A stretch of DNA of 64,000 nt, from NCBI GenBank assembly GCA_026396805.1, contig JAPLVZ010000012.1, positions 8,127 through 72,126 of the forward strand, written 5' to 3'. The notes under the pieces are model-generated. The model saw only the letters and a program-made list of their open reading frames with translations, had not been told where the DNA came from and ran no database searches. Origin of the DNA: Candidatus Falkowbacteria bacterium. GTDB taxonomy: Bacteria > Patescibacteriota > Patescibacteriia > Patescibacteriales > UBA12465. The translations under genes were made by a program, and so were the position numbers. Shown one piece after another: positions 27,750 through 63,799 of this stretch. The stretch's first letter is position 1, and each line of letters opens with the position of its first letter.

Positions 27750-28706
27750 ATGAAGATTCTGATTACCGGCGGCGCCGGATTTATCGGCTCGCATCTCTGT
27801 AAACGGCTCCTGGAAGAAGGAAATGAAGTAATCTGCCTGGATAATTTTTTTACCGGCGACGAGGCCAATATCCGGCCGCTTTTGAAAAATCCGAAATTTG
27901 AACTGCGGCGGCATGATATCACTTCCCCTTTAAACATAGAAGTTGATCAAATTTACAATTTAGCCTGCCCGGCTTCGCCCATCCATTATCAATTTGATCC
28001 GGTCCAGACTACAAAAACCTCTGTTTATGGCGCTATTAATGTCCTGGATTTGGCGAAAAGAACCAAGGCGACGATACTTCAGGCTTCTACTTCCGAAGTT
28101 TACGGCGACCCCGAAGTCCATCCTCAACCGGAAACTTATTGGGGCAAGGTCAATTGCATCGGAATCAGATCTTGTTACGATGAGGGGAAACGTTGCGCCG
28201 AGACTTTGTTTTTTGATTATTATCGTCAATACAAAACTGATATCCGGGTGATACGGATTTTTAACACTTACGGACCGAATATGCACCCCGGTGACGGCCG
28301 CGTTGTTTCTAATTTTATCGTTCAGGCCTTGAAAAATAAAGATATCACGATTTACGGCGACGGTTCGCAGACCCGCAGTTTTCAATATATTGATGATCTT
28401 ATTGAGGGGATGATTAGGATGATGAATAATCAGGAGAAATTTATCGGTCCGATTAATCTCGGCAATCCGGAAGAGTTTACCATTAAGGAACTGGCAGAAA
28501 CGGTTTTGCGGCTGATTCCGGAGAGTAAGAGTCGGATAATCTACAAAGATTTACCGGCTGATGACCCGCGGCAGAGAAAGCCGGATATAACCCTGGCTAA
28601 GACGAAACTGGGCTGGGAACCGAAAATAAGGCTTGAAGAGGGGCTGAAAAAGACGATTGAATATTTTAGGAAGGGAGTGAAGTGTCCGAAAAAATCGGAC
28701 AGTTGA
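27750..28706 (+). CDS. UDP-glucuronate decarboxylase (UDP-xylose synthase)-like extended SDR
   Basis: GGAGFIGSH and YDEGKRCAE (YxxxK) motifs, with strong overall resemblance to UXS. The last ~11 codons come from repeat R1. Confidence 0.85.
28683..28701. repeat. Hairpin D (Bro-type): tgtccga aaaaa tcggaca
   Basis: Perfect 7-bp arms. It covers the last codons of the UXS gene. It is homologous in position to hairpin C in R2, but with different, compensating arm bases. Confidence 0.8.
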
Positions 28707-28744
28707 AAATGTTGGCTCAAGACGGAAAAACGCGTGAAACTCAT

Positions 28745-28772
28745 AAAAAAAGGCGGCTAGGGCCGTCTTTTT
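28745..28772 (+). terminator. Rho-independent terminator inside R1
   Basis: aaaaaggcggc / gccgtcttttt stem (one G-T pair) followed by a T-run. Confidence 0.7.
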
Positions 28773-28824
28773 GGATAGAGGAAAAGGGGGCGCTATTATT
28801 TATCATTAGCTAGAAATTTCGGTT

Positions 28825-28848: not shown

Positions 28849-29793
28849 TTACTTTTTTAATCTTTTTTGATTATACTTCGCCAATTCTAATCTAACTTTC
28901 TCCTCCATATCGTCACGAGACACGGCGCCGGCGTTATTTAATACTTTTTCCTTATTAAAGATTAGAAACTCGTTCAATTCATTAACCCAATCTCTCATAT
29001 ACATTAATCTTTCTTTAACGCTTTGCAGTTCGGCAAAAGACAAGAATTGCTCTACCAGTAAATTCAGTCTCTTAAGCTCCAATTCTTCCAGATAATTTTT
29101 AGCGATTTCCGCCTGTTCGCGAGTAATAATTTCCCCTGGCCAATTAGTTAAACCGAGGTTTTCCTTAGAGCTGTCTATCCGACTGTTAACTATCTCCGCG
29201 TCCGTCAGTCCGCTGATGGCATAATGGAATTTATTCTGCACCATCGCAAAAAATTTCTGGGCGTAATCGGTTTTAGGGCTATAATCAACGCTAAGGGCAA
29301 AAATGTCTCTGACTTTTTGATAGAAATTAGCCTCCGAGGTTCTTATCTTTCGGATTCGCTCTTTCAATTCCTGAAAGTATGATTTGGCGACCTTACCGCC
29401 GGCTAATCGCTCATCGTCCATCACGAACCACTTGATAATATACTCTTTTAGCTTTTGAGTCGCCCAGATGCGGAATTGCGTGCCGCGGAGGGAATTAATC
29501 CGATATCCGACCGAGATAATCGCGTCTAGGTTATATAAATTTACGGGTCTTTTCACCTCCTTATTTCCTTCTTTTTGAACTATCAAGTATTCCTTGATAG
29601 TTTGGTTTTCGCTAAGTTCAGCCTCATTAAACACATTTTTTAAATGTAGATTAATATTAGCGACGCCGCAATTGAATAACTCTGCCATTTGAACCTGACT
29701 TAACCAAACAGTCTCATTTTCAAGCTTAACTTCCAGTTTCATCTTCCCGTCTTCCGTGCTGTAAATAATGATTTGATTGTTTTTGTCATTCAT
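28849..29793 (-). CDS. RhuM-family protein (full length)
   Basis: 314 aa. The family-typical blocks WLSQVQMAELF, YNLDAIISVGYRINSLRGTQFRIWATQKL and DDERLAGG are present. ggaggcgga (SD) lies upstream of the ATG. Confidence 0.85.
   Translation of the reverse strand: MNDKNNQIIIYSTEDGKMKLEVKLENETVWLSQVQMAELFNCGVANINLHLKNVFNEAELSENQTIKEYLIVQKEGNKEVKRPVNLYNLDAIISVGYRINSLRGTQFRIWATQKLKEYIIKWFVMDDERLAGGKVAKSYFQELKERIRKIRTSEANFYQKVRDIFALSVDYSPKTDYAQKFFAMVQNKFHYAISGLTDAEIVNSRIDSSKENLGLTNWPGEIITREQAEIAKNYLEELELKRLNLLVEQFLSFAELQSVKERLMYMRDWVNELNEFLIFNKEKVLNNAGAVSRDDMEEKVRLELAKYNQKRLKK
29578..29602. repeat. Intragenic hairpin in RhuM copy 1: aactatcaag (5-nt loop) cttgatagtt
   Basis: Perfect 10-bp arms. 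The frame was checked against the ORF, and it encodes TIKEYLIV. Confidence 0.9.
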
Positions 29794-29943
29794 AAGATTT
29801 GCTCCGCCTCCGCTTATTGGCGGCCACGCGGATTAAAATTAATTATTATATTATTCAGCTTAGCAAAACAGCGATAAAGCCAAGTTAAATAAAAAATAAA
29901 GGATTTTTTTATTTGACGCCGGAGACGGAAGTGAAGTGGTCAC

Positions 29944-29968
29944 AAACCGTGACAATTTGTCACGGTTT
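29944..29968. repeat. Hairpin E (Bro-type): aaaccgtgacaa t ttgtcacggttt
   Basis: Perfect 12-bp arms. In one frame it reads QTVTICHGF, which parallels QLSTICRQL of the Bro-N-like genes. Confidence 0.85.
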
Positions 29969-29985
29969 CGTTAAGGAAGTGAGTC

Positions 29986-30002
29986 TGTCACAAAATGTGA
30001 CA
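29986..30002. repeat. Hairpin C (Bro-type): tgtcaca aaa tgtgaca
   Basis: Perfect 7-bp arms. Relative to hairpin D, two arm positions changed on both sides and pairing is kept (cg/cg becomes ac/gt). Confidence 0.8.
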
Positions 30003-30044
30003 AACTGGAGATGTTGGCTCAAGACGGGAAAATGCGTGAAACTT

Positions 30045-30074
30045 ATAAAAAAGACGGCCAGAGCCGTCTTTTTG
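30045..30074 (+). terminator. Rho-independent terminator inside R2
   Basis: aaaaaagacggc / gccgtcttttt perfect stem followed by a T-run. The G-T pair of R1 is an A-T pair here. Confidence 0.7.
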
Positions 30075-30174
30075 AATAGGGGGAAAGGGAACGCTATTAC
30101 CGTCTTTTAGAAACGCTTTTTATCAGTCCGATGACTCCTCTCCACGCTTAGTTTATATTCATCTATTCTCTTTA

Positions 30175-30372
30175 CAAAATGTGTTTAATGAGGCTGAGCT
30201 TAGCGAAAACCGAACTATTCGGAAATTCCGAATAACTGCCGCTGACGGAAAAACATATGATACTAATCTTTATAATCTTGACGTAATTATTTCCGTGGGT
30301 TACCGAGTTAACTCTCTCCGTGGCACTCAATTCCGTATTTAGGCAACCCAGAAGCTAAAAGAATAAATAATA
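30175..30372 (+). pseudogene. RhuM relic (internal fragment with two nonsense codons)
   Basis: Translates QNVFNEAELSENRTIRKFRITAADGKTYDTNLYNLDVIISVGYRVNSLRGTQFRI*ATQKLKE*IIK. TGG became TAG at 30340-30342 and TAT became TAA at 30364-30366, relative to the intact copy. Confidence 0.75.
30216..30234. repeat. Hairpin in the RhuM relic: tattcgga aat tccgaata
   Basis: Perfect 8-bp arms at the same codon position as in the other RhuM copies. It encodes IRKFRI. Confidence 0.85.
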
Positions 30373-30446
30373 AAATTTTATAGAACTTATCCAATTGTCG
30401 CGACACTGTCACGACAATTAAGCTAGTCACATTATGTTGAGTTAAT
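30373..30446 (+). pseudogene. DUF1016/YhcG relic fused in frame to the RhuM relic
   Basis: Reads FYRTYPIVATLSRQLS*SHYVELIEL, compared with FYRAYPIVQTVSAQLSWSHYVELIEL in the intact gene 500 bp downstream. Confidence 0.7.
30392..30420. repeat. Hairpin in the DUF1016 relic: caattgtcgcgaca c tgtcacgacaatta
   Basis: 12 of 14 arm positions pair. Three arm bases differ from the intact copy on each side, and two of the three pairs are restored. Confidence 0.8.
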
Positions 30447-30447
30447 T

Positions 30448-30482
30448 GAGCTCCTTTGTGAAGAGAGAGGGGGCTCTTTTTT
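30448..30482 (+). terminator. Rho-independent terminator
   Basis: gagctcc (30448-30454) pairs with ggggctc (30470-30476), followed by T6. Confidence 0.6.
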
Positions 30483-30560: not shown

Positions 30561-30589
30561 AGGGTGATTATTATTAATCATTTAAATTT

Positions 30590-31585
30590 ATGAAAAAAGT
30601 AAAAATCAGCGGAATTAATAAAAGCCTGGCAAATCCAAGCGATTATGGGAATCTATTACATGAGTTAAAAGGAATTATTATTAAAGGACAAAACAAGGCC
30701 TATAAAGCCATAGATAATATTAAAGTCCAGACGTATTGGCAGATAGGCGAACGGATAGTTAGGGAGGAATTAAAAAATAAAGATAGGGCTGAATATGAAA
30801 AGTATTTAATAGAGAATCTGGCCGTAGATCTAAATATTGGCAAACGCGTTTTATATGAAATAGTTAAATTTTATAGAGCTTATCCAATTGTGCAGACAGT
30901 GTCTGCACAATTGAGCTGGTCTCATTATGTTGAGTTAATTGAACTAAGTGATAATAAAGAACGTCAATTTTACGAAAGTAAGATAGTAGCTAACTCCTGG
31001 TCTATCCGGGAACTTAAAGAGCAGATTAAAAATCGTCTCTATCAGAAAACCGATGACAAAGAAAAGGAAAAAATGTTAAAAACCAAGCTTCCGGCTGTAG
31101 TCGACCTGCAAAAAATATTCAAGCCCGATTACGATTTTAATTTTTTAGAAATAGCGCCCAGCCATCAAGAAAAAGAGCTGGAAGATAAAATCATTTCCAA
31201 TATCGAATATTTCCTCAAGGAATTAGGTAATGATTTTATGTTTCTGGGTCGACAAGTACCCATATTAATCGATAATGAGAAGCATTATATCGATTTAGTC
31301 TTGTATCATCGCGGCATTCCTTGTGTTATTCTAGTCGATCTTAAGGCTGATAAACTAGATAGCCGCGATATCGGTCAAATGAATAAATATATTGGCTATT
31401 ATCGCCATAATAGACAGTATGTTTACGAAAACGACACTATTGGCCTTATTATCTGTAAAGAACTGGGTCATGAAGAAGTAATCTATGCTTTAGACGGTTT
31501 AGAGGAAAAGATATTTGTTTCTCTATATAAAACAAAACTGCCAAGCGAAGAGAGAATTAAACGAGCGGTGAGAGGGATAAATTAG
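30590..31585 (+). CDS. DUF1016/YhcG-family PD-(D/E)XK nuclease-like protein
   Basis: 331 aa. The N-terminal block is IVQTVSAQLSWSHYVELI. The C-terminal core is YIDLVLYH...VILVDLKADKL (D...DxK). Confidence 0.8.
   Translation: MKKVKISGINKSLANPSDYGNLLHELKGIIIKGQNKAYKAIDNIKVQTYWQIGERIVREELKNKDRAEYEKYLIENLAVDLNIGKRVLYEIVKFYRAYPIVQTVSAQLSWSHYVELIELSDNKERQFYESKIVANSWSIRELKEQIKNRLYQKTDDKEKEKMLKTKLPAVVDLQKIFKPDYDFNFLEIAPSHQEKELEDKIISNIEYFLKELGNDFMFLGRQVPILIDNEKHYIDLVLYHRGIPCVILVDLKADKLDSRDIGQMNKYIGYYRHNRQYVYENDTIGLIICKELGHEEVIYALDGLEEKIFVSLYKTKLPSEERIKRAVRGIN
30885..30913. repeat. Intragenic hairpin in the DUF1016 gene: caattgtgcagaca g tgtctgcacaattg
   Basis: Perfect 14-bp arms. The frame was checked, and it encodes PIVQTVSAQL. 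Confidence 0.9.
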
Positions 31586-33678: not shown

Positions 33679-36621
33679 ATGAAAATATTCATCTCATATC
33701 CGCCGCTGATTTCGGAGAAAGGAATTCCGCTTTTGAGCCAGAATCGCCAATTCCAGTGGTTCAACAGCCCGACCTATATCTATCCGGTTATCCCGGCTTA
33801 TTTGGCGACCCTACTGAAAGAGGCGGGCCATGAAGTCGTCTGGGACGACGGCATCGCTGAGGGTTTGCGCTATGGAGACTGGGAGAAGCGCCTATTGTCG
33901 GCGCATCCGGATTTGATTTTTTTTGAAACCAAGACTCCAGTCGTCAAACGGCATTGGGCGATTATCAATGATCTGAAAACTAAATTAGCGGCTAAGATCG
34001 TCCTGTTGGGCGACCATGTCACGGCCGAGCCGGAAGAAAGCTTGCGTTATTCCAAAGTTGACTATGTCCTGGCCGGGGGCGACTATGATTTCGGCGGCTT
34101 GAACCTGGTTCGGTTTTTAGCCGGCGAAGCGGAACTGGAGCCGGGCTGGCACTGGCGGACGGGTGGCGAGTGGCAGGCGACGAGCGACAATCAGGAGATT
34201 AACTGGCGGGACGGAGAATTCAAGGCTTTGAAAGCCGCATCTAGCGGCGAGAGGCAGAATTATGCCGCCCAGAATCTAGATACCTTGCCCATGATTGACC
34301 GCGAGCTGACCAATTGGCGGCTTTATGCCTATAAGAATGGCAATTTTAAATACATGCCCGGCGCCTATCTGATGAACGCCCGCGATTGTTGGTGGGGGAG
34401 GTGTAGTTTCTGCTTGACCGGTGAAGCGCAAGTTTTAACCATCAAAGGCGCTAAAAATATAGCGGATATAGAAAAAGGAGATCGAGTTTTAACCCATTTG
34501 GGAAATTATAAAAAAGTTAATGAAACTTTAAAAAGAAATTATGAGGGCGAACTGATCGAGATAAAGACTAATTGTCTTATGCCTTTTAAAATAACGCCGA
34601 ATCATCAAGTGCTTAACTTGCCCTTGAAAGATTTAAGCCGTTGTTTAAAAGTTGGCCAGGCCGGCTATCTTTGTAAAAGCAATAATGATTTTTCTAAGCG
34701 CTTAGATTGCGCTAATTGCGAGCTCCCTAAACCCTATTTAAATTATAAGCCACAATATATAGAAGCGGGACAGATCAGTAAGGGCGATTATCTAGCCGTA
34801 CCGATAAACAGAGAAATTATTAAAACTGCCAAGTTAGATTTGAAAAAAATATTAAATCTACAACCAACAATCATCAACACTTGGAAAAAAATTGCCGATT
34901 CGCTTATCAAAGAGATTTTAACTCTTAACCAGCAAGGTAAAAGCGAAAGAGATATTTCAGTTCTTCTTAAAATTGACCGAGAAACCGTTCATCGCTATAT
35001 ATCTTTAGAAAAAGCCGAGCAATTAATCAATAAAAGTAATCCGCTTAAATATAAAGGTGGAAAAATAAGTTTTGAGGGAGGAAAAAATTGGCTGCCGGCG
35101 GACATAGTTTTAAAAGATGATGTTTATAGATTATTTGGTTATTACTTGGCGGAGGGCTGCGTTTCTAAACTAAAGAATCGGCCGAATTCCCTGGTTATCA
35201 GCCTTACTTTTAATCAGAAAGAGCGGGAATATATTGCCGATGTTAAAAAAATATTTGAAGATATTTTTAAGGTTGAGGTTAATATTAATCAGAATAAAGT
35301 TAACCATACAACCCAAATTACAGTCGGAAATTCTTTGCTGGCCAAAGTATTTAAGAATTTATTCGGCGATAATTGTTATAATAAAAGTCTGCCGGAATTT
35401 ATTATGAAGGCCGAGAGAGTAAAACAAGTAGAACTACTGCGCGGAATTTTTCGGGGTGATGCTCATTATCGACAGAGAGGAACTAGAGCGGAATATATTT
35501 TAAGTTCGGCCTCGGACAGCCTGTCGTCCCAATTAGTCATGCTTCTTTTAAGATGTTCGGCTATACCGAGCGTGAGGCGGACTAAGATAAGGGGGAAAAT
35601 GACTAAAGAACAAAATATTATTACTCTTTCCAGTATTGATATTATTAATTTGTTTGCCGAGAAAAAAAGGGTGGAAAAAGTTGAATCGCTTTATAAAAAA
35701 GGCTTTATTATCGGAAATTATGCTTATTTACCCGTAACGCGACTAAAAAAAGAGCAATATAAAGGAGCGGTCTATAATCTATCGGTTGATAAAGACCATA
35801 GCTACACGGCTAATTTTGTCGGCGTCAGTAATTGTTCCTGGACCACGCTTTTCCCCGGGCAGACTTTCCGCGTCCGCTCGGCCCGTTTGGCCTTGGATGA
35901 AGTCGGCCAGCTGATTGATTTGGGCGTCAAGGAAATCATGGAAGATTCCGGCACCTTGCCGGTCGGCCCTTGGCTGGAAGAATTTTGTAACGGCATGATA
36001 GAGCGCGGCTACAATAAAAAGATCGTCATGAGTTGTAATATGCGCATCAGCGGAATTAAGGATCCCGAAATCTGGAAGCTAATGAAGCGTGCCGGTTTTC
36101 GCTTTATCTTATTCGGTTTAGAATCGGCTAATCAAAAAACCTTAGACGCGATTAATAAAAATCTGAAAGTTGAAGAAATTGAACCGGGGCTAAGAATGTG
36201 CAAGGAGGCCGGTTTAGAGCCTCATATTACCGCCATGATCGGCTATCCTTGGGAAACTTATGAAGACGCTAAAAAAACCGTGGAATTAGCGAAGGATTTA
36301 TTTAAAAAGAACTGCGTTAATACCCTTCAGGGCACGGTTTTAATTCCATATCCGGGCACGCCGCTTTATGCGAAATGCTGGGCGGAAGGTTTATTGAATT
36401 TTACCGATTATGATCGTTTTGATCAAAGGGAGCAGGTTATGAAATGCCCCTTAACGACTGAACAAGTCAAGGAACTCACCCAGGGGCTATATAAGGCCTT
36501 TATGAGCCCTAAATTCGTCATTAATAAGCTAAAATCAATCAGAAGCTGGAGTGATATTAAATTCTTATGGATGGCCGGGATGAAGGTTCTAGGGCATTTG
36601 ACTGATTTCAGCAAGAAATAA
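33679..36621 (+). CDS. Class B (cobalamin-binding-domain) radical SAM enzyme, interrupted by an intein
   Basis: The extein is ~506 aa. It has an N-terminal B12-binding-like Rossmann region (DLIFFETKTP...VLLGDHVT) and a cluster motif DCWWGRCSF|C split by the intein. The C-terminal half is a radical SAM TIM barrel (FGLESANQKTL). Confidence 0.85.
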   Translation: MKIFISYPPLISEKGIPLLSQNRQFQWFNSPTYIYPVIPAYLATLLKEAGHEVVWDDGIAEGLRYGDWEKRLLSAHPDLIFFETKTPVVKRHWAIINDLKTKLAAKIVLLGDHVTAEPEESLRYSKVDYVLAGGDYDFGGLNLVRFLAGEAELEPGWHWRTGGEWQATSDNQEINWRDGEFKALKAASSGERQNYAAQNLDTLPMIDRELTNWRLYAYKNGNFKYMPGAYLMNARDCWWGRCSFCLTGEAQVLTIKGAKNIADIEKGDRVLTHLGNYKKVNETLKRNYEGELIEIKTNCLMPFKITPNHQVLNLPLKDLSRCLKVGQAGYLCKSNNDFSKRLDCANCELPKPYLNYKPQYIEAGQISKGDYLAVPINREIIKTAKLDLKKILNLQPTIINTWKKIADSLIKEILTLNQQGKSERDISVLLKIDRETVHRYISLEKAEQLINKSNPLKYKGGKISFEGGKNWLPADIVLKDDVYRLFGYYLAEGCVSKLKNRPNSLVISLTFNQKEREYIADVKKIFEDIFKVEVNINQNKVNHTTQITVGNSLLAKVFKNLFGDNCYNKSLPEFIMKAERVKQVELLRGIFRGDAHYRQRGTRAEYILSSASDSLSSQLVMLLLRCSAIPSVRRTKIRGKMTKEQNIITLSSIDIINLFAEKKRVEKVESLYKKGFIIGNYAYLPVTRLKKEQYKGAVYNLSVDKDHSYTANFVGVSNCSWTTLFPGQTFRVRSARLALDEVGQLIDLGVKEIMEDSGTLPVGPWLEEFCNGMIERGYNKKIVMSCNMRISGIKDPEIWKLMKRAGFRFILFGLESANQKTLDAINKNLKVEEIEPGLRMCKEAGLEPHITAMIGYPWETYEDAKKTVELAKDLFKKNCVNTLQGTVLIPYPGTPLYAKCWAEGLLNFTDYDRFDQREQVMKCPLTTEQVKELTQGLYKAFMSPKFVINKLKSIRSWSDIKFLWMAGMKVLGHLTDFSKK
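34411..35832 (+). mobile_element. Radical SAM intein (474 aa) with HTH and LAGLIDADG endonuclease domains
   Basis: CLTGEAQVLT at the N-terminus, block B TPNHQVLN, LAGLIDADG-like LFGYYLAEGCV and LLRGIFRGDAH, and an HTH-like GKSERDISVLLKIDRETVHRYI. It ends VYNLSVDKDHSYTANFVGVSN followed by Cys+1. Both junctions are in frame with 33679. Confidence 0.87.
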
Positions 36622-36806: not shown

Positions 36807-37940
36807 ATGGAAAATAAGCAAATAAAACGTGATATTGAAAAAAATATCAGAGATTGGTTATTTAAAGGTAAAATAATCATTCTTTATGGCGCGCGCCAAG
36901 TTGGTAAAACAACCTTGGCTAAAAAGCTTTTAAGAGAGCATGGTCGTCCGACAGATTATTTTAATTGCGAAATTTCCTCCATCAGATCGGCCTTGGAAAA
37001 AGAAGATCCGACAGCCTTAAAAAAGTTTTTAGGCGACGGTCGTTTGATTGTTTTAGATGAAGCGCAAAAAGTAAGTAATATCGGATTAATTTTAAAACTC
37101 CTGTTAGATACCTATCCGAATATACAGATTGTCGCCACCGGTTCATCTTCTTTTGATTTGGCCAATCAAGTTAATGAGCCCTTGACCGGCCGCGCCTTAG
37201 AATTCACGCTTTATCCTTTTTCATTGCGTGAACTTAAAAATTTCTATAAAAATTATGAGCTTGAAGGGCAATTGGAAAATTTATTGATTTATGGATTATA
37301 TCCGGAAATAGTAAAAAGCGATTCGACCAACGCTCGCCAGCTTTTAGATAATTTAAGCAATAAATATTTGTATCAAGATATTTTAATTTTTAATCGGATT
37401 AAAAAGTCCGGTTTGATTGTTAAATTACTGCAGCTCTTAGCTTTGCAGATCGGGAACGAGGTATCGATTAATGAATTGGCCGTTAATCTGCAATGCAGTC
37501 GCGATACGGTTGTTAATTATTTGGATATTTTGGAAAAAGCGTTTATTATTTTCCGTCTGCGCGCCTATAGCCGGAATCAGCGTAAGGAAATCGTCAAAAA
37601 ACAAAAAATTTATTTTGTTGATTTGGGAATCAGGAATAGTTTAATCAGCCGTTATAATGAACTGGCGGTTCGTGATGATGTCGGCGCTTTATGGGAAAAT
37701 TTTTGTATTATTGAGCGTTTGAAAAAAATTCAGGCCGATAATTTATATTGTCAAAAATATTTTTGGCGCGCAATCAGTCAAAAGAAAGTTGATTATGTAG
37801 AAGAATACAACGATCGTCTGGACGGTTATGAATTTAAATGGGGTAAAGGCAAGGCGTCGGCGCCTAAAGAATTTTTAGCTTATAAAAACAGTCGCGTTAA
37901 TTTGATAAATCGTGATAATTACCAAGAATTTTTAACATAG
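36807..37940 (+). CDS. AAA-type ATPase with a DUF4143-like C-terminal domain
   Basis: GARQVGKTTLA (Walker A) and VLDEAQ (Walker B). The architecture is typical of the AAA_14/DUF4143 family. Confidence 0.8.
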   Translation: MENKQIKRDIEKNIRDWLFKGKIIILYGARQVGKTTLAKKLLREHGRPTDYFNCEISSIRSALEKEDPTALKKFLGDGRLIVLDEAQKVSNIGLILKLLLDTYPNIQIVATGSSSFDLANQVNEPLTGRALEFTLYPFSLRELKNFYKNYELEGQLENLLIYGLYPEIVKSDSTNARQLLDNLSNKYLYQDILIFNRIKKSGLIVKLLQLLALQIGNEVSINELAVNLQCSRDTVVNYLDILEKAFIIFRLRAYSRNQRKEIVKKQKIYFVDLGIRNSLISRYNELAVRDDVGALWENFCIIERLKKIQADNLYCQKYFWRAISQKKVDYVEEYNDRLDGYEFKWGKGKASAPKEFLAYKNSRVNLINRDNYQEFLT

Positions 37941-38070
37941 ACCTGTCGCCAATGCTAGACCGGATTTGCAAAAGATGAGCGTAGAGCAGAGAATTAAGGA
38001 GCATAAAAATGTCCCTGAAAATGTCCCTGAAACTACCCAGAAAATTATTGGGAGCTAATAAAATAGTATT

Positions 38071-38562
38071 ATGGAAAACCTAAATTCACAAATTGTAATA
38101 TATAAAGATCAAAATGGACATATCAAAATCGATGTTCGTTTTGATGGTGATACTGTCTGGCTGACCCAAGATCTTATATCAATTTTATTTAATAAAGCAA
38201 AATCTACTATAAACGAACATATAAAAAATATATATGCTGAAAGTGAGTTGTCAGAGCTAAGTTCAATGAGAAAATTCGGAAATTCCGAATTTTCTACAAA
38301 ACCTACTAATTATTACAACTTAGACCTAATTATCGCTGTTGGCTATCGGGTAAAATCACCCCAAGGCACTATTTTCCGCAAATGGGCCACCGAGAGGCTC
38401 TCGGAATATATTGTTAAGGGTTTTGTATTAGATGATGAGAGGTTAAAAAACCCGGATTTGCCGTTTGATTATTTTGAGGAATTAACCCGTCGCCTTGCGG
38501 ATATTCGCACAGAAATCTTGATGATATTAAATTTTTGTGGCGGGCGGGAACGAAGGTATTAG
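38071..38562 (+). pseudogene. RhuM-family gene truncated after ~147 codons
   Basis: The N-terminal 147 aa are RhuM-like (WLTQDLISILF, YNLDLIIAVGYRVKSPQGTIFRKWATERL, DDERLKNP). Homology stops at ...ADIRTE (~38513), and the remaining reading is out-of-frame radical SAM tail. Confidence 0.75.
38269..38295. repeat. Intragenic hairpin in RhuM copy 3: agaaaattcgga aat tccgaattttct
   Basis: Perfect 12-bp arms. The frame was checked, and it encodes RKFGNSEFS. Confidence 0.9.
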
Positions 38563-38588
38563 GGCATTTGATGGATCTTAGAGAGTAG
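38520..38588 (+). pseudogene. Relic of a radical SAM gene 3' end
   Basis: Reads DDIKFLWRAGTKVLGHLMDLRE*, compared with SDIKFLWMAGMKVLGHLTDFSKK* at 36550-36621 (16 of 22 residues identical). DNA similarity is clear over ~50 nt. Confidence 0.65.
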
Positions 38589-54337: not shown

Positions 54338-54502
54338 ATTAGAACTGGGGGTGGGATTTTGTGAGGAGGAAGAAAGATTTGATAGAGGTTGAGGAGGTTA
54401 GTGTTATTGAAGGTTAGGGGGTGGCGCTATGTGTCCGCTTGAGGGTCTGAGATGGTGCTGGGCGATTGTTTACGCAAGATAGGACTAAATTACATCAAAT
54501 TT

Positions 54503-55243
54503 ATGACTAATACTTACAAAATTAAAGATAAACTATTAATAATTGGCGACGGTCGTTATAGTAATGAAGAAATCATGGCATTATACAGAGAAATAGAAAA
54601 TCACATTTTTCGTTCGGAATTTAATGAAGATTTAAATGCTTGTCTTGATGATTGCTTACATAAGATTAAAGCAACCTGGTATCATCTTTCTACTATTAAA
54701 CAAGAGGTTGAAGAAATAATGACGCACCCGAAACATTATTTGCAGCAACAAGTTTTTCAGTCTTATCCAAAAATAGAATTTCAAGATAATCGTCTTATTT
54801 ATGAGATAGAAGCTTTTTTATTTCAGGTAAAAAGTAATTTGGATATTATCGTACAAGTCCTAACTTTCTTTTATCCTAATTTAAAAAGTGAAAATGCCGA
54901 TAGGCCTAATGGTTTTGATGGTAAAAAGAGGCTAGCTGGTTACAAAACAATTGAAAAGTTAACGACAGCTGGAGAGGCTAGATTAGCTGATTATTTTAAA
55001 GGGGAGGTAAGTGATTGGATTCAAGAAATGGTTGATTTGCGTAATACTGTCACTCACAAAACTCAACTGGAAAACTACCAGTCATTTTTAATAACGGAAA
55101 TGTTATCTAACGAGCTTGAAATAAAAACACCACTAATGCCTTCGGGGCAAAAAGTGGAAGTTTATTGTCAATTAGTTTTTGATAAATTATTAAATTTTTA
55201 TCGGACAGTGTTTGTAGATATTATTGGCGAATATAAAAAATAG
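54503..55243 (+). CDS. Hypothetical protein with a HEPN-like Rx4H motif
   Basis: ~246 aa, predicted mostly helical. MVDLRNTVTHK contains R-N-x3-H, as in Abi/HEPN families. The ATG at 54503 is preferred. Confidence 0.4.
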   Translation: MTNTYKIKDKLLIIGDGRYSNEEIMALYREIENHIFRSEFNEDLNACLDDCLHKIKATWYHLSTIKQEVEEIMTHPKHYLQQQVFQSYPKIEFQDNRLIYEIEAFLFQVKSNLDIIVQVLTFFYPNLKSENADRPNGFDGKKRLAGYKTIEKLTTAGEARLADYFKGEVSDWIQEMVDLRNTVTHKTQLENYQSFLITEMLSNELEIKTPLMPSGQKVEVYCQLVFDKLLNFYRTVFVDIIGEYKK

Positions 55244-55395
55244 TAAATTTAGAAGAATAAAGTGAAAAATTATAAAATAGAAGAAATAGAAACAGATCCT
55301 TCGCTCCGCTCAACTCGCCTCGCTTCGCTGGCGAAGCGGGAATGGCAAAGAAAGATTTTATAAAAACTTTATAAATATTTTATTTAATATTAGCC

Positions 55396-55424
55396 TTGAT
55401 AATGATTATTAAACCTGCTATAAT
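55396..55424 (+). promoter_or_regulatory. Sigma-70-type promoter (TTGATA, 17-nt spacer, TATAAT) for the Bro-N-like genes
   Basis: -35 at 55396-55401 and -10 at 55419-55424. The upstream 30 nt is 29/30 identical to the module at 62206-62235. Confidence 0.6.
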
Positions 55425-55453
55425 CAGGTGATAATAATTAATTATCTAAATTT

Positions 55454-56161
55454 ATGGCTAAAAATGACAAACAAAATGAAATTAATAAAATAGTCTTGTT
55501 TAAAGGGCAAAAGATTAGGCGAATTATTTTTAATGATGAATGGTGGTTTTCTGTTGTTGATGTTTGCGGAGTGTTGGTGGAAAGTACAAACGCTAGAGAT
55601 TATTGGTATAGAGTAAAAAGTAGAGTTGAAGATGAAGAAAAACTTCAACTGTCGACAATTTGTCGACAGTTGAAGTTAGAGTCGCCTGACGGCAAAATGC
55701 GTGAAACCGATTGCGCAAATACCGAAGGATTATTCCGTATTATTCAGTCTATCCCTTCGCCGAAAGCTGAACCGTTTAAACGTTGGTTGGCTAAGGTCGG
55801 CTATGAGCGAGTTCAAGAAATTCAAGATCCAGAATTAGCGACTAAAAGAACTAGAGAACTCTATAAGCTAAAGGGTTATAGCGATTCCTGGATTGAAAAG
55901 CGGCTGCGCGGTATCGCTATTCGCGAAGAATTAACTGATGAATGGAAAAATAGAGGGGCGAGAGAAAAAAAGGATTATGAAATTTTAACGGCGGAAATAT
56001 CAAAAGCGACTTTTGGATTAACCCCGGTTCAGTACAAAAAAGTTAAGAGTCTGGGCAAAGAGAATTTGCGCGATCATATGGAAGATATTGAAAAACAATC
56101 TGACGCTAAAGTTGCCAGTTCGAATAATTTTTTAGGGCGGAAAAATCACCAGCTAGAATGA
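55454..56161 (+). CDS. Bro-N / DinD-like protein (copy A, with an internal deletion near the C-terminus)
   Basis: 235 aa with WWFSVVDVCGVL, DGKMRETDCANTEGLFRIIQSIPSPKAEPFKRWLAKVG. Relative to copy B it lacks ~45 aa between NLRDHM and the C-terminal tail. Confidence 0.8.
   Translation: MAKNDKQNEINKIVLFKGQKIRRIIFNDEWWFSVVDVCGVLVESTNARDYWYRVKSRVEDEEKLQLSTICRQLKLESPDGKMRETDCANTEGLFRIIQSIPSPKAEPFKRWLAKVGYERVQEIQDPELATKRTRELYKLKGYSDSWIEKRLRGIAIREELTDEWKNRGAREKKDYEILTAEISKATFGLTPVQYKKVKSLGKENLRDHMEDIEKQSDAKVASSNNFLGRKNHQLE
55641..55677. repeat. Intragenic hairpin in Bro-N-like copy A: aacttcaactgtcgacaa t ttgtcgacagttgaagtt
   Basis: Perfect 18-bp arms. The frame was checked, and it encodes KLQLSTICRQLKL. 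Confidence 0.92.
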
Positions 56162-56203
56162 AGAGGAAATTGTTTAAGCGATAATAATTAATTATCTGAA
56201 TTT

Positions 56204-57046
56204 ATGGCTAAAAATTTTAACAAAAACGTCGATAAGAACATCGCCTTATTTGGAAATGATCCGGTCCGTAGAATATGGGATGAAAAGGAAGAACGATGGT
56301 ATTTTAGCGTCGTAGACGTGGTACGAGTTCTCGCGGATAGTTCTCGGCCCGACGCTTACTGGGTCGCGATGAAAGCTCGGGTAAAAAGTGATGATGGAAT
56401 TCAGTTATCTACAATTTGTAGGCAACTGAAGCTGGAGGCTTCTGATGGTAAAAGATATCAGACTGATTGCGCTAATACCGAAGGCGTACTTCGTATCATT
56501 CAATCAATCCCTTCCCCTAAAGCCGAACCCTTTAAGCGCTGGCTGGCTAAGGTCGGACAGGAACGGATACGGGAGATAAACGATCCGGAGATTGCTTTAA
56601 ACCGTTCTCGGGAGCTTTGGCAAAAGCATGGCCGAAGCGAGTCGTGGATTCAACGAAGGATGATGGGGCAAGAAACTAGAAATAAACTGACTGATTATTG
56701 GAGCGAACACGATGTTAAAAAGGGTGATGAGTTTGCGATTCTGACTAATATTATCCACGAAGAATGGAGTGATTTATCGGTGAAAAAGCATAAAGATTTG
56801 AAAGGTTTGAAAACGCAGAATTTACGCGACCACATGAGCGAAGAAGAATTAATTTTCTCCGCCTTAGCCGAAATGTCTACTAGAAAAATCGCGGAAACGG
56901 AACAGACTGCCGGTCTGGAGGCTAATAAAATTCCTGCCAAGAAAGGCGGCAAAATCGCGAAAGATGCGAGAACTGCTTTAGAAGAGAAAACCGGCCAAAG
57001 CGTGATTACCGGTCGGAACTTTTTACCGAAGTTAAAAAATAAATAA
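56204..57046 (+). CDS. Bro-N / DinD-like protein (copy B)
   Basis: 280 aa with the same motif set as copy A. The 5' leader ataataattaattatctgaatttatg is nearly identical to that of copy A. Confidence 0.8.
   Translation: MAKNFNKNVDKNIALFGNDPVRRIWDEKEERWYFSVVDVVRVLADSSRPDAYWVAMKARVKSDDGIQLSTICRQLKLEASDGKRYQTDCANTEGVLRIIQSIPSPKAEPFKRWLAKVGQERIREINDPEIALNRSRELWQKHGRSESWIQRRMMGQETRNKLTDYWSEHDVKKGDEFAILTNIIHEEWSDLSVKKHKDLKGLKTQNLRDHMSEEELIFSALAEMSTRKIAETEQTAGLEANKIPAKKGGKIAKDARTALEEKTGQSVITGRNFLPKLKNK
56400..56430. repeat. Intragenic hairpin in Bro-N-like copy B: ttcagttatctacaa t ttgtaggcaactgaa
   Basis: Of 15 arm positions, 13 are Watson-Crick, one is G-U and one is a mismatch. It sits at the same codon position as in copy A, with different outer arm sequence. 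Confidence 0.85.
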
Positions 57047-60750: not shown

Positions 60751-60940
60751 AGGTCGGAGAATCGACTCCTTATTGCTTAAATGTTAGTTGTTTTGACCTG
60801 TGGATAACTCAGAGGTAAATTGTTTGTTAAAGTTAGATAAAAGTTGTATAATTAAATTATAAGTCGGATAAAAAATATTATAATTTTTGATAAATAATTA
60901 TAAAAATTACGTAATTTTGTACTTATTTATTTTTAGAACA

Positions 60941-62048
60941 ATGAACAAAATAAAAAGTTTTATTTTTTCGGAAAAGAAATTGTCAGGCGCGATTTTTGGT
61001 ATTTTAATCTTAGTCGCTTTTGCCTTTATCTTCGGTCCGAATATCTACGCGCAATTTGCTCGTAATGATGGCGGAACTACCGGCTATGGTTACGGTTATG
61101 GTTATGGTTCCGGCTATGGTATTAATGACGGTTCCTATCGTACTGGCGGTGGTAATTTAGATCAATATGATTACGGCTATGGTTTTGCCGATACTTATAC
61201 TTGGCTTCAGGGCGGATTTGGATCATGTACTGTTTCTTGTGGAAGCGGTACCCAGACTCAGACCGTAACTTGTCAAGGCAGTACCGATATAGCAGTTGCC
61301 GATTCATATTGTCTCGCTACTGTTGCAAAACCGGCTGTTTCTCAAGCTTGTAATACTCAGTCTTGCAGTTCTGGTGGCGGCGGCGGCGGTTCCTATACGC
61401 CGGCTTGCACGAGTGTGACTTATGGCGATTATGCGGCGGCCTGCTTTGCCGGCTACCAATATCGCGCTGTTACTGCCCGCACTCCGTCTCTCTGCTCCTT
61501 AACTGCGGCGCAACAGGACGCGTCCAGAAAAGTTTGCGGCGCTGTACCGGACGTGAATATAACTGGTCAAGGATTGATCAACTATCAAGATGCCAACAAC
61601 ACGGCTAACTTTATCGCTTTGGAAAAGAACTTGGTTAAGAAGATTAACAAAGCCTTAGCCAAGCGTTTAAGCGGTCGGATTCTCTTGCAGGTGGAAGAAC
61701 ATGGTGAAGCTTGGTATGTTCATCCGATTGACCTTTTGAAGTATTACCTGGGTCGTCCGGCTGATGCTTTTGCCATTATGCGGAAGTTCGGTCTCGGCGT
61801 TAGCGTTCGTTCTCGGCGTTAGCGAGAAAGATTATGCTAACTTTGCCAAAGGCACGGTTCCGGCGCGTCTCGCCGGCCGCATTCTTCTAAGAGTGCAGGC
61901 TCACGGTGAAGCTTATTATATCAATCCGGTTGATATGAAGATGAATTATATGGGTCGTCCGGCTGACGCTTTCGCTTTAATGCGGAAGTTCGGTCTGGGC
62001 ATTACCAATGCTAATTTACGTCAGATTGGCGTCGGTGAGATTAAATAA
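60941..62048 (+). pseudogene. Secreted repeat protein (signal peptide, Gly/Tyr-rich region, TSP1-like Cys repeat, two C-terminal ~50-aa repeats) split by a 19-bp tandem duplication
   Basis: ORFs 60887-61822 and 61764-62048 join in frame if 61806-61824 is removed. The likely start is the ATG at 60941 (MNKIKSF...AFIFGPNIYAQ signal peptide). Confidence 0.75.
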
Positions 62049-62098: not shown

Positions 62099-62227
62099 TG
62101 TTTGGGGCGGGGAAGAATATTAGCGTATCAGCCGCCGCGTTTATCTCTTAATATCAGCTTAAAACGATTTAGAAAATTTTAAGTTTTATTTATAAAGATT
62201 TTATTAATATTTTATCTAATATTAGCC

Positions 62228-62256
62228 TTGATAATTTCAGGTAGATTTGCTATATT
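62228..62256 (+). promoter_or_regulatory. Sigma-70-type promoter (TTGATA, 17-nt spacer, TATATT) for the first NYN gene
   Basis: -35 at 62228-62233 and -10 at 62251-62256. The ATG at 62263 lies 7 nt after the -10, so the mRNA may be leaderless. Confidence 0.55.
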
Positions 62257-62262
62257 GTGGGG

Positions 62263-62796
62263 ATGAAAAATAATTTTAAAAAAAATTTTGCTTATATTGA
62301 CGGCGCCAATCTTCATAAAGGAATAAAAGATTTTGGTTGGCGGCTGGATTATAAGCGTTTTCGCGTTTGGCTGAAAGAAAAATACTCAGTTGAATGCGCC
62401 TATTTATTTATCGGATTAATCCCAAAATATAAAGATTTGTATGCTTTTTTGCAAAAATCCGGGTTTACTCTTATTTTTAAAGAAACAACTTATGATGGTA
62501 ATGGCAGGGTGAAAGGAAATTGTGATGCCGATTTGGTTTTAGCGGCGGTACGTGATACTTTTGAAAATTCTTATTTTAAATCAGTTTTAGTTTCTAGCGA
62601 TGGCGATTACGCGGGTTTAGTGAAATTTCTTTTAGAAAAGAATAAGTTTAAAATTTTACTTTCACCGGATGAACATTGTTCGGTTCTATTAAAACGTACC
62701 AACGCCCCGATTTCTTATTTGAGTGATAAGAGAAATATCTTAGAAAATATTGATCGTCTTTATAAAAAAGCCCCCGATGCGGACAAAACCGCATAA
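62263..62796 (+). CDS. NYN (LabA-like PIN-fold) domain protein, copy 1
   Basis: FAYIDGANLHKG, NCDADLVL and VLVSSDGDYAGLV motifs. The ATG at 62263 is preferred to the GTG at 62257. Confidence 0.8.
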   Translation: MKNNFKKNFAYIDGANLHKGIKDFGWRLDYKRFRVWLKEKYSVECAYLFIGLIPKYKDLYAFLQKSGFTLIFKETTYDGNGRVKGNCDADLVLAAVRDTFENSYFKSVLVSSDGDYAGLVKFLLEKNKFKILLSPDEHCSVLLKRTNAPISYLSDKRNILENIDRLYKKAPDADKTA

Positions 62797-62898
62797 GGGT
62801 CTTTTTTGTAGTGATGGTTATATTTTATCACTTTTTAAAAATAAGTCAACCACCTGTATTAGTCCAACACATATTAGTCGAGTTTAGAAGAAAGCTTC

Positions 62899-62927
62899 TC
62901 AGTTGTCCGAAAAAACCGGACAACTGA
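62899..62927. repeat. Intergenic hairpin G (Bro-type): tcagttgtccg aaaaaac cggacaactga
   Basis: Perfect 11-bp arms. It is related to hairpin D (tgtccga...tcggaca), but the outer arm bases differ and still pair. It abuts the leader of the RhuM fragment. Confidence 0.85.
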
Positions 62928-62949
62928 AATTATTATTAATTTTAAATTT

Positions 62950-63231
62950 ATGGACAAGAAAAACAATCAAATCATTATTTACAGTACGGAAGATGGGAAG
63001 ATGAAGCTTGAGGTTAAGCTTGAAAATGAGACCGTTTGGTTAAGTCAAAAACAGATGGCGGAGCTGTTTGACTGTAGTATCCGGAACATCAGCTTACATT
63101 TACAAAATGTGTTTAATGAGGCTGAACTTAGCGAAAATTCAGTTATGAAGGATTACTTCATAACTGCCTCTGACAAAAAGAATTACCTGATTAAATACTA
63201 CAATTTAGACGCGATTATCTCGGTCGGCTAA
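62950..63231 (+). pseudogene. RhuM N-terminal fragment (93 codons)
   Basis: The first ~62 aa are nearly identical to the intact copy at 28849-29793. It stops at ...YNLDAIISVG*, whereas the intact copy continues YRINS. Confidence 0.75.
63140..63166. repeat. Intragenic hairpin in RhuM copy 4: cagttatgaag gatta cttcataactg
   Basis: Perfect 11-bp arms. The frame was checked, and it encodes SVMKDYFITA. Confidence 0.9.
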
Positions 63232-63265: not shown

Positions 63266-63799
63266 ATGATTAATAATAAGCAAATAAAAAATTTGGCGTT
63301 CATAGATGGACAAAATTTATACATGGGTACCGCCAAAAGACAAGTTGATCCATGGAGAATAGATCTTGATCGTTTTCGCGTATATTTGGAGAAAAAATAT
63401 AATACCAGTAAAGCTTATTATTTTTTAGGATATGTCCAAAGAATGAATCAAGAATTATATGAGGAAATTCAAAACGCTGGTTTTGTTTTAGTATTTCGCG
63501 AGCATAATCCGGCGATGATTGGAAAGAAAAAGGGGAATGTAGACTCGGATATTATTTTTCAGATAATGAAAAAAATGTATAAAAAAGAAGATTTTGACAA
63601 AATTATTCTTGTCTCCGGAGATGGTGACTATAAATTGCTGGTCGATTTTTTAATTGAAGAAAACAGATTTAAAAAGATTTTATTTCCTGATAGAAGTAAA
63701 AGATCATCCCTTTACAAAAGTTTGTCAAATAAATTTTTTGCTTATTTGGACGATACCGATATTAAAAATAAGATAAAAAAAAAGAAAAGGGTGCCTTAG
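63266..63799 (+). CDS. NYN (LabA-like PIN-fold) domain protein, copy 2
   Basis: LAFIDGQNLYMG, NVDSDIIF and ILVSGDGDYKLLV motifs. It is a paralogue of 62263-62796. Confidence 0.8.
   Translation: MINNKQIKNLAFIDGQNLYMGTAKRQVDPWRIDLDRFRVYLEKKYNTSKAYYFLGYVQRMNQELYEEIQNAGFVLVFREHNPAMIGKKKGNVDSDIIFQIMKKMYKKEDFDKIILVSGDGDYKLLVDFLIEENRFKKILFPDRSKRSSLYKSLSNKFFAYLDDTDIKNKIKKKKRVP

Follow-up and report, generated by a model that had tools for sequence, protein, structure and literature searches.

At positions 62899-63231 of the window (the whole 64,000-nucleotide stretch of contig JAPLVZ010000012.1 of a Candidatus Falkowbacteria bacterium analysed here), two perfect hairpins, one of the Bro and one of the RhuM gene family, lie on one short decayed accessory unit, and both are most likely leftovers of genes that carry such palindromes within their codons. 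The first, hairpin G (62899-62927), belongs to what remains of a Bro gene, and the second (63140-63166) stands inside a RhuM gene that is truncated at its 3' end. The whole is probably best explained by decay of the Bro and RhuM genes combined with a palindrome that is kept at the level of the nucleic acid and may act in DNA. Seen locally, genes of an accessory array have decayed in an ordinary way in a bacterium of the Candidate Phyla Radiation (CPR). The palindrome as such dictates the local amino-acid sequence of its gene and is kept from Patescibacteria to Proteobacteria, Bacteroides phages and plasmids of cultured bacteria.

Hairpin G (+ strand) consists of 11 perfect pairs (tcagttgtccg and cggacaactga) around a 7-nt loop (aaaaaac) and represents the SEK[IT]G variant of the internal codon palindrome of the Bro family. 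Folded as RNA it reaches a dG of -18.1 kcal/mol (z = -6.4), a stability that 0/200 dinucleotide shuffles attained, and its opposite strand reaches -21.1 kcal/mol. The palindrome of the RhuM fragment (+ strand) likewise has 11 perfect pairs (cagttatgaag and cttcataactg), with a 5-nt loop (gatta) and z = -4.9 in shuffle folding; it codes for VMKDYFIT, begins 190 nt past the ATG at 62950 and is followed 65 nt on by the end of the open reading frame (ORF) at 63231 (...IISVG*). Coordinates, letters and ORF end had been given exactly in an initial annotation of this DNA, which had also rightly observed that two hairpin families sit on one short decayed unit. Perfect hairpins of at least 11 bp number eight in the window, whereas 30 Markov simulations led us to expect 0.07; two of them are terminators, and Bro, RhuM or YhcG genes or relics account for the other six. 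The stems of these families in the window range from -12 to -26 kcal/mol, with z from -2.8 (Bro2, which 3/200 shuffles equal) to -8.7. The count and the shuffle-folding scores together rule out a chance origin.

Hairpin G had been described as an intergenic Bro-type hairpin. The type is right, but the hairpin is not intergenic, being part of a coding remnant, ~58 nt long, of a Bro-N (DinD-like) gene (62876-62933, + strand; SRV*KKASQLSEKTGQLKL), which lacks a start codon and of which some 19 codons are left in frame with the hairpin (SRV*KKAS-QLSEKTGQLKL), interrupted by an in-frame TAG at 62885. The remnant, which is no intact Bro-N ORF and was also missed by tblastn, has homology to Bro-N (PF02498) around the internal palindrome, and the hairpin segment aligns without gaps to 86 Bro-family hairpin segments. 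Here and below, L002-L081 denote genome contigs with Bro, the L082-L103 range metagenome relatives and the L219-L244 range viral contigs. The core TGTCCGAAAAAAYCGGACA is present in 28 viral contigs, in about 18 of the 28 inside an intact Bro-N gene, and these intact genes read ...YWNDLKKKL..EGSE[VL]SEKIGQLK[LM]..DGK..TDV.. around it. The viral contigs L225 (..CAGTTGTCCGAAAAAATCGGACAACTGAAAATG..) and L228 (..CGGACAACTGAAATTAGAG..) have the outer stem of hairpin G as well as the 3' flank CAACTGAAATTA. We hold it to be highly likely that hairpin G is part of a deleted Bro gene in front of the truncated RhuM gene. The equivalent place in an intact gene is seen in Bro1 of the window (gene 55454-56161, + strand; Pfam Bro-N match 1.9e-17), whose perfect 17-bp palindrome (55641-55677), our reference, lies 189 nt past the ATG and codes for LQLSTICRQLKL. 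The family match of Bro1 extends only to aa 213 of 235, and its 3' end may have diverged or been truncated itself.

A kinship had also been proposed between hairpin G and hairpin D, which lies in the first copy of a direct repeat, R1 (copy a, 28670-28800, + strand), composed of a Bro remnant, hairpin D and a terminator and overwriting the last codons of an epimerase gene (27750-28706). This kinship was borne out, the core of D (28683-28701, TGTCCGAAAAAATCGGACA) being one base apart from that of G (TGTCCGAAAAAACCGGACA). The compensated change suggested for the outer arms was not, as the outer arms of D pair poorly and both forms, GAAGTGTCCG..CGGACAGTTG and CAGTTGTCCG..CGGACAACTG, occur in intact Bro genes; R1 copy a at 28670-28741 differs little from the form GAAGTGTCCG..CGGACAGTTGAAAATGTTGGCT, which L219 and others have. 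Since the difference already exists in intact genes, it does not reflect compensation in situ, and G and D derive from different alleles of a single Bro subfamily.

The RhuM ORF is truncated, as had been annotated. Its 93 codons (62950-63231, + strand) correspond to aa 1-96 of the 314-aa RhuM encoded at 28849-29793, to which they are 70% identical over that range, and nucleotide homology to RhuM ends at 63230. The full-length protein matches its Pfam family with 321 bits (4.4e-96). The fragment stays below the gathering score of RhuM (PF13310; 17.2 vs 33.7 bits, with aa 64-93 covering model positions 1-33 of 252), its homology being to the N-terminal part of genuine RhuM proteins (70% identity to the window RhuM and 86% to that of L082). 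An AlphaFold model of RhuM (29 sequences), confident for aa 31-100 (pLDDT ~90 or more), comprises a winged-helix domain (aa 1-88) with two strands, two helices and a beta wing (66-87), and the truncation cuts the following helix (89-98). According to this model the DNA-binding domain of the fragment could still fold, with the RhuM domain gone. The RhuM domain has been proposed to be a toxin (PMC3710099). Truncated N-terminal RhuM ORFs are common on long contigs; the best 120 homologues of the protein search are all short though full-length relatives exist, which makes them unusable as an estimate of frequency.

In intact genes the palindrome is almost invariably retained. A Bro scan with one genome per species yielded more than 580 relatives, and the best 80 of them, at 64-79% protein identity and from CPR lineages, Gamma-, Alpha- and Deltaproteobacteria, Nitrospirota, Omnitrophota, Planctomycetota and others, all have it at the same codons. 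Among 88 distinct Bro sequences 89.8% of cells are paired, both sides have changed in 10 of the 12 pairs, and the covariation score is 0.456 vs 0.18 for shuffled and at most 0.10 for slid alignments. Columns 12 and 34 (third position of a Gln/Glu codon and first position of a Leu codon) are AU in 56 and GC in 32 sequences and thus paired in 88/88; both positions being synonymous, this is covariation between synonymous sites. The inner pairs switch as well (TCGACA/TGTCGA, TCTACA/TGTAGA, TTTACA/TGTAAA, GTGACA/TGTCAC). For RhuM (90 distinct sequences from metagenomes and viral contigs; gut (pro)phage, 41-47% identity), 91.5% of cells are paired, double changes occur in 12/12 pairs (298 cells), and the score is 0.704 vs 0.246 shuffled and at most 0.17 slid. 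The helix is supported by covariation, the observed pairing or covariation score being reached in 0/500 shuffles, and the peptide encoded by the RhuM palindrome varies freely (VIRKFRIT, VTEESSVT, TTKESLVV, VCRKFQHT, VVSKMETT). The palindrome is 10-17 bp long and lies about 190 nt into the ORF in Bro and RhuM and about 295 nt into it in YhcG. On plasmids, the pCNAC48 rhuM of Aliarcobacter cryaerophilus, flanked by hsdM and hsdS, has a palindrome with 10 or more perfect base pairs and a Salmonella rhuM homologue has 9/10 pairs; in a Ligilactobacillus gene the palindrome is degraded.

That the protein drives the palindromy is ruled out by the covariation between synonymous sites, by the free variation of the RhuM peptide and by the RhuM model, in which the palindrome codes for one beta strand of the wing and no symmetric protein hairpin. 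A binding site for a protein dimer was dismissed by reasoning, more than 80 different covarying arm sequences being unsuited to a fixed dimer, and a XerCD/dif-like or tyrosine-recombinase core does not fit 3-5-nt loops and free arm variation. Rfam returned 0 matches at gathering thresholds in the whole window (best below threshold: rdlD, 24.6 vs 50 bits, - strand), and a known RNA family was rejected, with only weak generic hairpin matches at E-value thresholds. No description of a codon-embedded palindrome was found in full-text literature searches. We are confident that selection at the nucleic-acid level keeps the palindrome. The opposite notion, that the palindromes are functionless, also in the relics, and perpetuate themselves by template switching, which would copy a change of one arm into the other, draws on strand-symmetric mismatches, nearly loop-less palindromes and persistence in non-coding relics, and in E. 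coli quasi-palindromes are known to be perfected by template switching. Known quasi-palindrome hotspots resemble our case in being short coding inverted repeats that are perfected by template switching, deletion-prone and strand-symmetric; unlike the palindrome described here, which is fixed at a homologous position across families and phyla, they are sporadic. We regard this notion as improbable, because nearly 100% retention at the same codons, across families about 40% identical and many phyla, is hard to explain without purifying selection when any deletion is irreversible; it also leaves unexplained how the element originated in three or four families.

From the hairpin onwards, RhuM genes align with the Bro query, and a type I restriction-modification (R-M) locus is on record in which one coding sequence has both dinD and RhuM domains (PMC9881135). 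Bro-N and the N-terminal domain of RhuM are thus homologous, and hairpin G and the RhuM hairpin occupy homologous positions. The third family is YhcG/DUF1016, whose palindrome in the window (30885-30913, in the DUF1016_N domain, PIVQTVSAQLSW) covaries in few sequences (L034 1300-1353, L082 2377-2430, L083 755-808); YhcG relatives were not found in the viral contigs. The YhcG of L141 has two copies of the hairpin (1041-1169), separated by an insertion of about 60 nt. Perfect 11-13-bp palindromes were also seen by eye in ORF6N/KilA-N-like sequences (e.g. ..FMFQLTKQEAESSRFQIGTLK..; L055 4688-4714, L040 2804-2834, L009 1310-1336, L041 4506-4530), and ORF6N-type genes may form a fourth family with a codon-embedded hairpin.

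Comparison of the locus with related metagenome contigs revealed Bro-RhuM(-YhcG) or Bro-NYN-RhuM arrays at the equivalent place. In L084 Bro is directly followed by RhuM, in L083 a truncated RhuM precedes YhcG, L103 has Bro, NYN and RhuM, and in L082 Bro is followed by a Bro remnant that has an internal deletion and still contains its hairpin (TCAGTTGGTTACAAAATGTAACCAACTGA), a leader, a full-length RhuM (86% identical over the fragment) and YhcG. Arrays of this kind represent the ancestral layout, with Bro cut to about 58 nt in the window. An exact-protein look-up for the orthologous locus returned only a 1-kb contig of the same organism.

Hairpin G abuts the shared AT-rich 5' leader of accessory genes, as had been noted. 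This leader (62928-62949, + strand; aattattattaattttaaattt) stands directly before the RhuM ATG, where it has a 1-nt deletion; its pattern has 3 matches in the window vs 0.02 expected, with copies before YhcG (30570-30592), Bro1 (55434-55456) and Bro2 (56184-56206), and it also occurs in L031, L082, L084, L085/86 and L103. At Bro1 and YhcG it lies directly 3' of a TATAAT box, and it was not found upstream of Bro genes in other phyla, where the upstream regions are unrelated. Because it is lineage-specific and follows a TATAAT box, the leader is the 5' untranslated region of a shared promoter module, and its role as a universal cassette junction is ruled out. The 3' end of the Bro remnant runs into the leader (AATTATTATTAATTTTAAATTT) in such a way that the first 6 nt, AAATTA, can be assigned to either side, which suggests that the two were joined by microhomology.

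Two NYN-domain genes flank the unit. The upstream one (NYN1, 62257-62796, + strand) has a sigma-70-like promoter (62228-62256) that is the only good + strand match for the unit, with none between NYN1 and the RhuM fragment. The downstream one (63266-63799, + strand), 82% identical to the NYN gene in L103, stands where the 3' part of RhuM is gone.

Functional RNA helices normally tolerate G·U far better than A·C. In the palindromes, G·T and A·C mismatches occur in similar numbers (27 vs 36 in RhuM, 33 vs 31 in Bro), so that the excess of G·U expected of a functional RNA helix was not seen, in a comparison confounded by codon constraints. Loops of 3 nt are found in 78/109 RhuM hairpins and in nearly all Bro hairpins, and copies of the hairpin persist outside any reading frame. 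This parity of mismatches, the near-loopless centre and the persistence out of frame favour pairing in DNA over an mRNA stem, and we tentatively suggest from these sequence patterns that the pairing may act in DNA, by a recombination-prone mechanism. A hairpin that acts in the mRNA as a cis-regulatory stem-loop within the ORF, controlling translation or decay of a toxic product or serving as a target of RNase III or the neighbouring NYN nuclease, with hairpin G still shaping the NYN1-RhuM transcript, is possible but rather unlikely. It would agree with the stability of the stems (-12 to -26 kcal/mol), with a position fixed relative to the start codon in two families, with the flanking NYN genes, with the proposal of RhuM as a toxin (PMC3710099) and with the co-orientation of the window copies with flanking genes and the lack of a + strand promoter between NYN1 and the RhuM fragment. 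As in stem-loops, terminators and attenuators known from ORFs, a stable covarying stem sits in the ORF, and hairpin G is weakly terminator-like; unlike in those, no particular tolerance of G·U is apparent, the hairpins of intact genes lack a U-tract, and Rfam has no such family (the rdlD-like match lies below threshold on the other strand). The loops, mostly of 3 nt, showed no conserved motif, nor did the flanks, and NYN genes are missing from most loci that have the hairpin.

Between NYN1 and the RhuM fragment hairpin G could at most have found a new use as a weak terminator or insulator. That it was spared because it serves the upstream NYN gene, or antisense transcription, as intrinsic terminator or insulator seems doubtful to us. 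A consensus scan flags it as terminator-like on both strands, an isolated copy between two phage genes of the viral contig L220 has CTTTTT after it, and each R1 copy precedes a canonical terminator. Yet the scan is a consensus match only (3 sites vs 0.9 expected), the tail AATTATTATT is a poor U-tract, hairpins of these families lie inside genes without U-tracts, and a weak terminator-like hairpin already follows the stop codon of NYN1.

The hairpins had been thought to mark cassette boundaries or breakpoints. Their tight association with relics stands, but a role as cassette ends does not, since in intact genes they lie inside the ORF. A permissive search at the protein level, which took no account of hairpins, found in the window Bro relics at 28670-28741 and 29990-30043, RhuM relics at 30172-30381, 38071-38511 and 62950-63228 and a YhcG relic at 30367-30453; each has its family hairpin, and the search found no other relics. 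In loci not chosen for Bro, 5/5 internal Bro fragments have the hairpin, for which uniform placement would give a probability of ~0.006 (hand calculation, before detection bias). Relics that end within a few nt of the hairpin base are hairpin G and those upstream of Bro genes in L041 and L076, and isolated hairpins of 27-40 nt occur in six distinct viral contexts. Isolated SEKIG-type hairpins were observed between two phage genes in L220 (6089-6107, followed by CTTTTT), in tandem with a second Bro-type hairpin remnant in L241 (~2050-2109), and between a gene end and a convergent gene in L244 (1303-1321), whose N-terminus looks integrase-like by eye. The suggestion that truncation points of relics cluster at hairpins was not supported: on long contigs the 3' ends of RhuM relics are spread over aa 85-160 vs aa 65-72 for the hairpin, and 5'-truncated RhuM relics begin at aa 51, 51 and 61. 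The recurring unit before accessory genes in this lineage is the leader of ~25 nt, not the hairpin.

Hairpins that act as recombination sites delimiting mobile cassettes in the manner of integron attC sites, with the gene fragments as recombination products, would account for relics that always carry the hairpin, for junctions at the hairpin base (G, L041, L076, isolated viral hairpins), for the stacked Bro hairpin remnants at 29920-30006 and in L241, for the doubled hairpin in the YhcG of L141, for R1 copies that have different hairpins, are 89% identical downstream and flank a RhuM gene, and for the gene order shuffled among relatives; the hairpin of L244 stands beside the gene with the N-terminus that is integrase-like by eye only. 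The likeness to attC lies in a structure conserved over sequence, with covarying arms, in DNA folded as a single strand and in promoterless accessory-gene arrays. Unlike attC (55-141 nt, RYYYAAC/GTTRRRY cores, extrahelical bases), the palindrome has 25-37 nt, no extrahelical bases and, by eye, no such R''/R' cores; on inspection hairpin G (29 nt) has no bulges, and GTTGTCC and GTTGAAA do not conform to GTTRRRY. Nor is the setting that of attC (a cassette 3' end, IntI, attI), since the hairpin lies about 190 nt inside intact ORFs, no integrase was seen among the window ORFs examined, and at the 80 Bro loci (128 neighbours) neither an integrase nor another recurrent partner, including R-M, was found, the neighbours being assorted housekeeping genes. 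Truncations are dispersed, mosaic enrichment is weak and the recurring junction sequence is the leader, and we judge such recombination sites unlikely. In L002-L081 the Bro/DinD-like gene was observed lone among unrelated housekeeping genes, and in L002, L068, L081 and the window two Bro genes stand in tandem.

Read most cautiously, the hairpins are what decay leaves behind; they are possibly also a cause of fragility nearby, and they are not cassette ends. For the proposed mechanism we envisage that the palindrome folds in DNA, either into a cruciform or, where the DNA is single-stranded, into a hairpin, and that it would be kept by selection, possibly aided by template-switch perfecting of quasi-palindromes. 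It would then outlast the surrounding gene, so that relics look hairpin-marked, and stalling or processing at the structure would probably make nearby DNA prone to deletion and illegitimate joining. At this locus Bro was deleted to ~58 nt and joined to the RhuM leader, and RhuM lost everything after codon 93, with the NYN gene following.

Several points speak against this combination of decay and a palindrome acting in DNA. Palindrome-stimulated deletions usually remove the palindrome and do not spare it. Breakpoints lie 0-260 nt from hairpins, the RhuM fragment being cut 65 nt past its own. A pairwise maximum-chi-square scan of 95 Bro genes gave 30 significant pairs vs 0 in permuted controls; the first mosaic peaks were artefacts of the frameshifted pseudogenes L053 and L056, after whose removal the enrichment near the hairpin is modest, with 16/30 breakpoints in columns 145-235 (hairpin 150-177), which is about 3-fold for pairs that are non-independent. 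The searches are themselves biased, as protein searches favour the region round the hairpin, hairpin scans find only relics with hairpins and the metagenome query was an N-terminal fragment. We identified no benefit of the DNA structure to the gene, and the argument from strand symmetry is confounded by codon constraints, which leaves room for a role in mRNA. The association of hairpins with relics may equally mean that the hairpin survives decay rather than causing breaks. In L053 (~1027-1092) an in-frame stop and a frameshift lie just upstream of the hairpin.

A bolder proposal, which we consider unlikely, is that the palindromes are cis-acting DNA sites that let Bro/DinD-like, RhuM, DUF1016/YhcG and possibly ORF6N genes move, swap halves and re-assort by means of ubiquitous host replication and repair enzymes. 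If true, this would be a recombinase-free mechanism for mobile cassettes across many phyla, with hairpin-centred relics as its footprints. The conserved DNA structure is a candidate handle on the spread of lone, recombinase-free Bro genes that are 64-79% identical across phyla. There is some likeness to the hairpin or cruciform in target genes of diversity-generating retroelements, a DNA hairpin tied to a gene and acting in cis on DNA transactions; unlike here, that hairpin is placed at the 3' end of a variable region and needs a reverse transcriptase and a template repeat, neither of which is present. The same families, RhuM, Bro-N and DUF1016, occur as cargo relics of defence and R-M islands, and RhuM and DUF1016 are enriched beside type I R-M specificity genes (PMC9881135). 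In contrast to such islands, the window has no R-M genes, its accessory genes lying inside a glycosyltransferase and envelope gene cluster, and the Bro relatives stand alone among housekeeping genes. For annotation, isolated perfect hairpins of 25-35 nt with CAGTTG/CAACTG-type outer stems are recognisable as relics of these genes.

Further relics lie elsewhere in the window. Three stacked Bro hairpin remnants (29920-30100, + strand) comprise a half hairpin and hairpins at 29944-29968 and 29982-30006, followed by R1 copy b and a terminator. They precede a RhuM remnant (aa 51-123, hairpin 30216-30234) and a YhcG remnant (aa 91-119, hairpin 30393-30419), together at 30172-30453 (+ strand) and joined at the microhomology IIKFY (30367-30381). 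The region 29920-30453 looks like a ghost Bro-RhuM-YhcG array, with no more left of each gene than a piece centred on the hairpin, and the order of its pieces is that of the intact Bro-RhuM-YhcG arrays of relatives. The two R1 direct repeats (~115 nt; 28670-28800 and 29985-30100), 89% identical downstream with differing hairpins, flank the inverted full-length RhuM gene (28849-29793), and a canonical terminator comes after each. Another truncated RhuM-like gene, the third (38071-38562; perfect 12-bp hairpin at 38269-38295), is paired with a DUF4143/AAA ATPase gene (36807-38562 together). The pair is bracketed by 60-nt direct repeats (36552-36611 and 38522-38581, 78% identical), which duplicate the 3' end of the preceding radical-SAM gene.

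Upstream of Bro1, a 263-aa ORF (54452-55243) shows a weak, sub-threshold Pfam likeness to Apea-like HEPN and may belong to the array as a further accessory or defence gene. The promoter region of Bro1 (55357-55450) recurs at NYN1 (62189-62282) as a 94-nt copy of 76% identity, with TTGATA-17-TATAAT/TATATT, and the leader downstream of it has a near-palindrome (GATAATAATTAATTATC) that could be an operator. Ahead of NYN1, a 140-nt direct repeat of 72% identity (61663-61802 and 61865-62004) codes for a repeated C-terminal module (..GRILLQVEEHGEAWY..RPADAFAIMRKFGLG..) in the adjacent ORFs 60887-61822 and 61764-62048, the second of which has no Pfam match. The radical-SAM gene (33679-36621) encodes a 980-aa radical SAM/B12-binding protein with a LAGLIDADG intein (Pfam Hint_2, Intein_splicing, LAGLIDADG_3).

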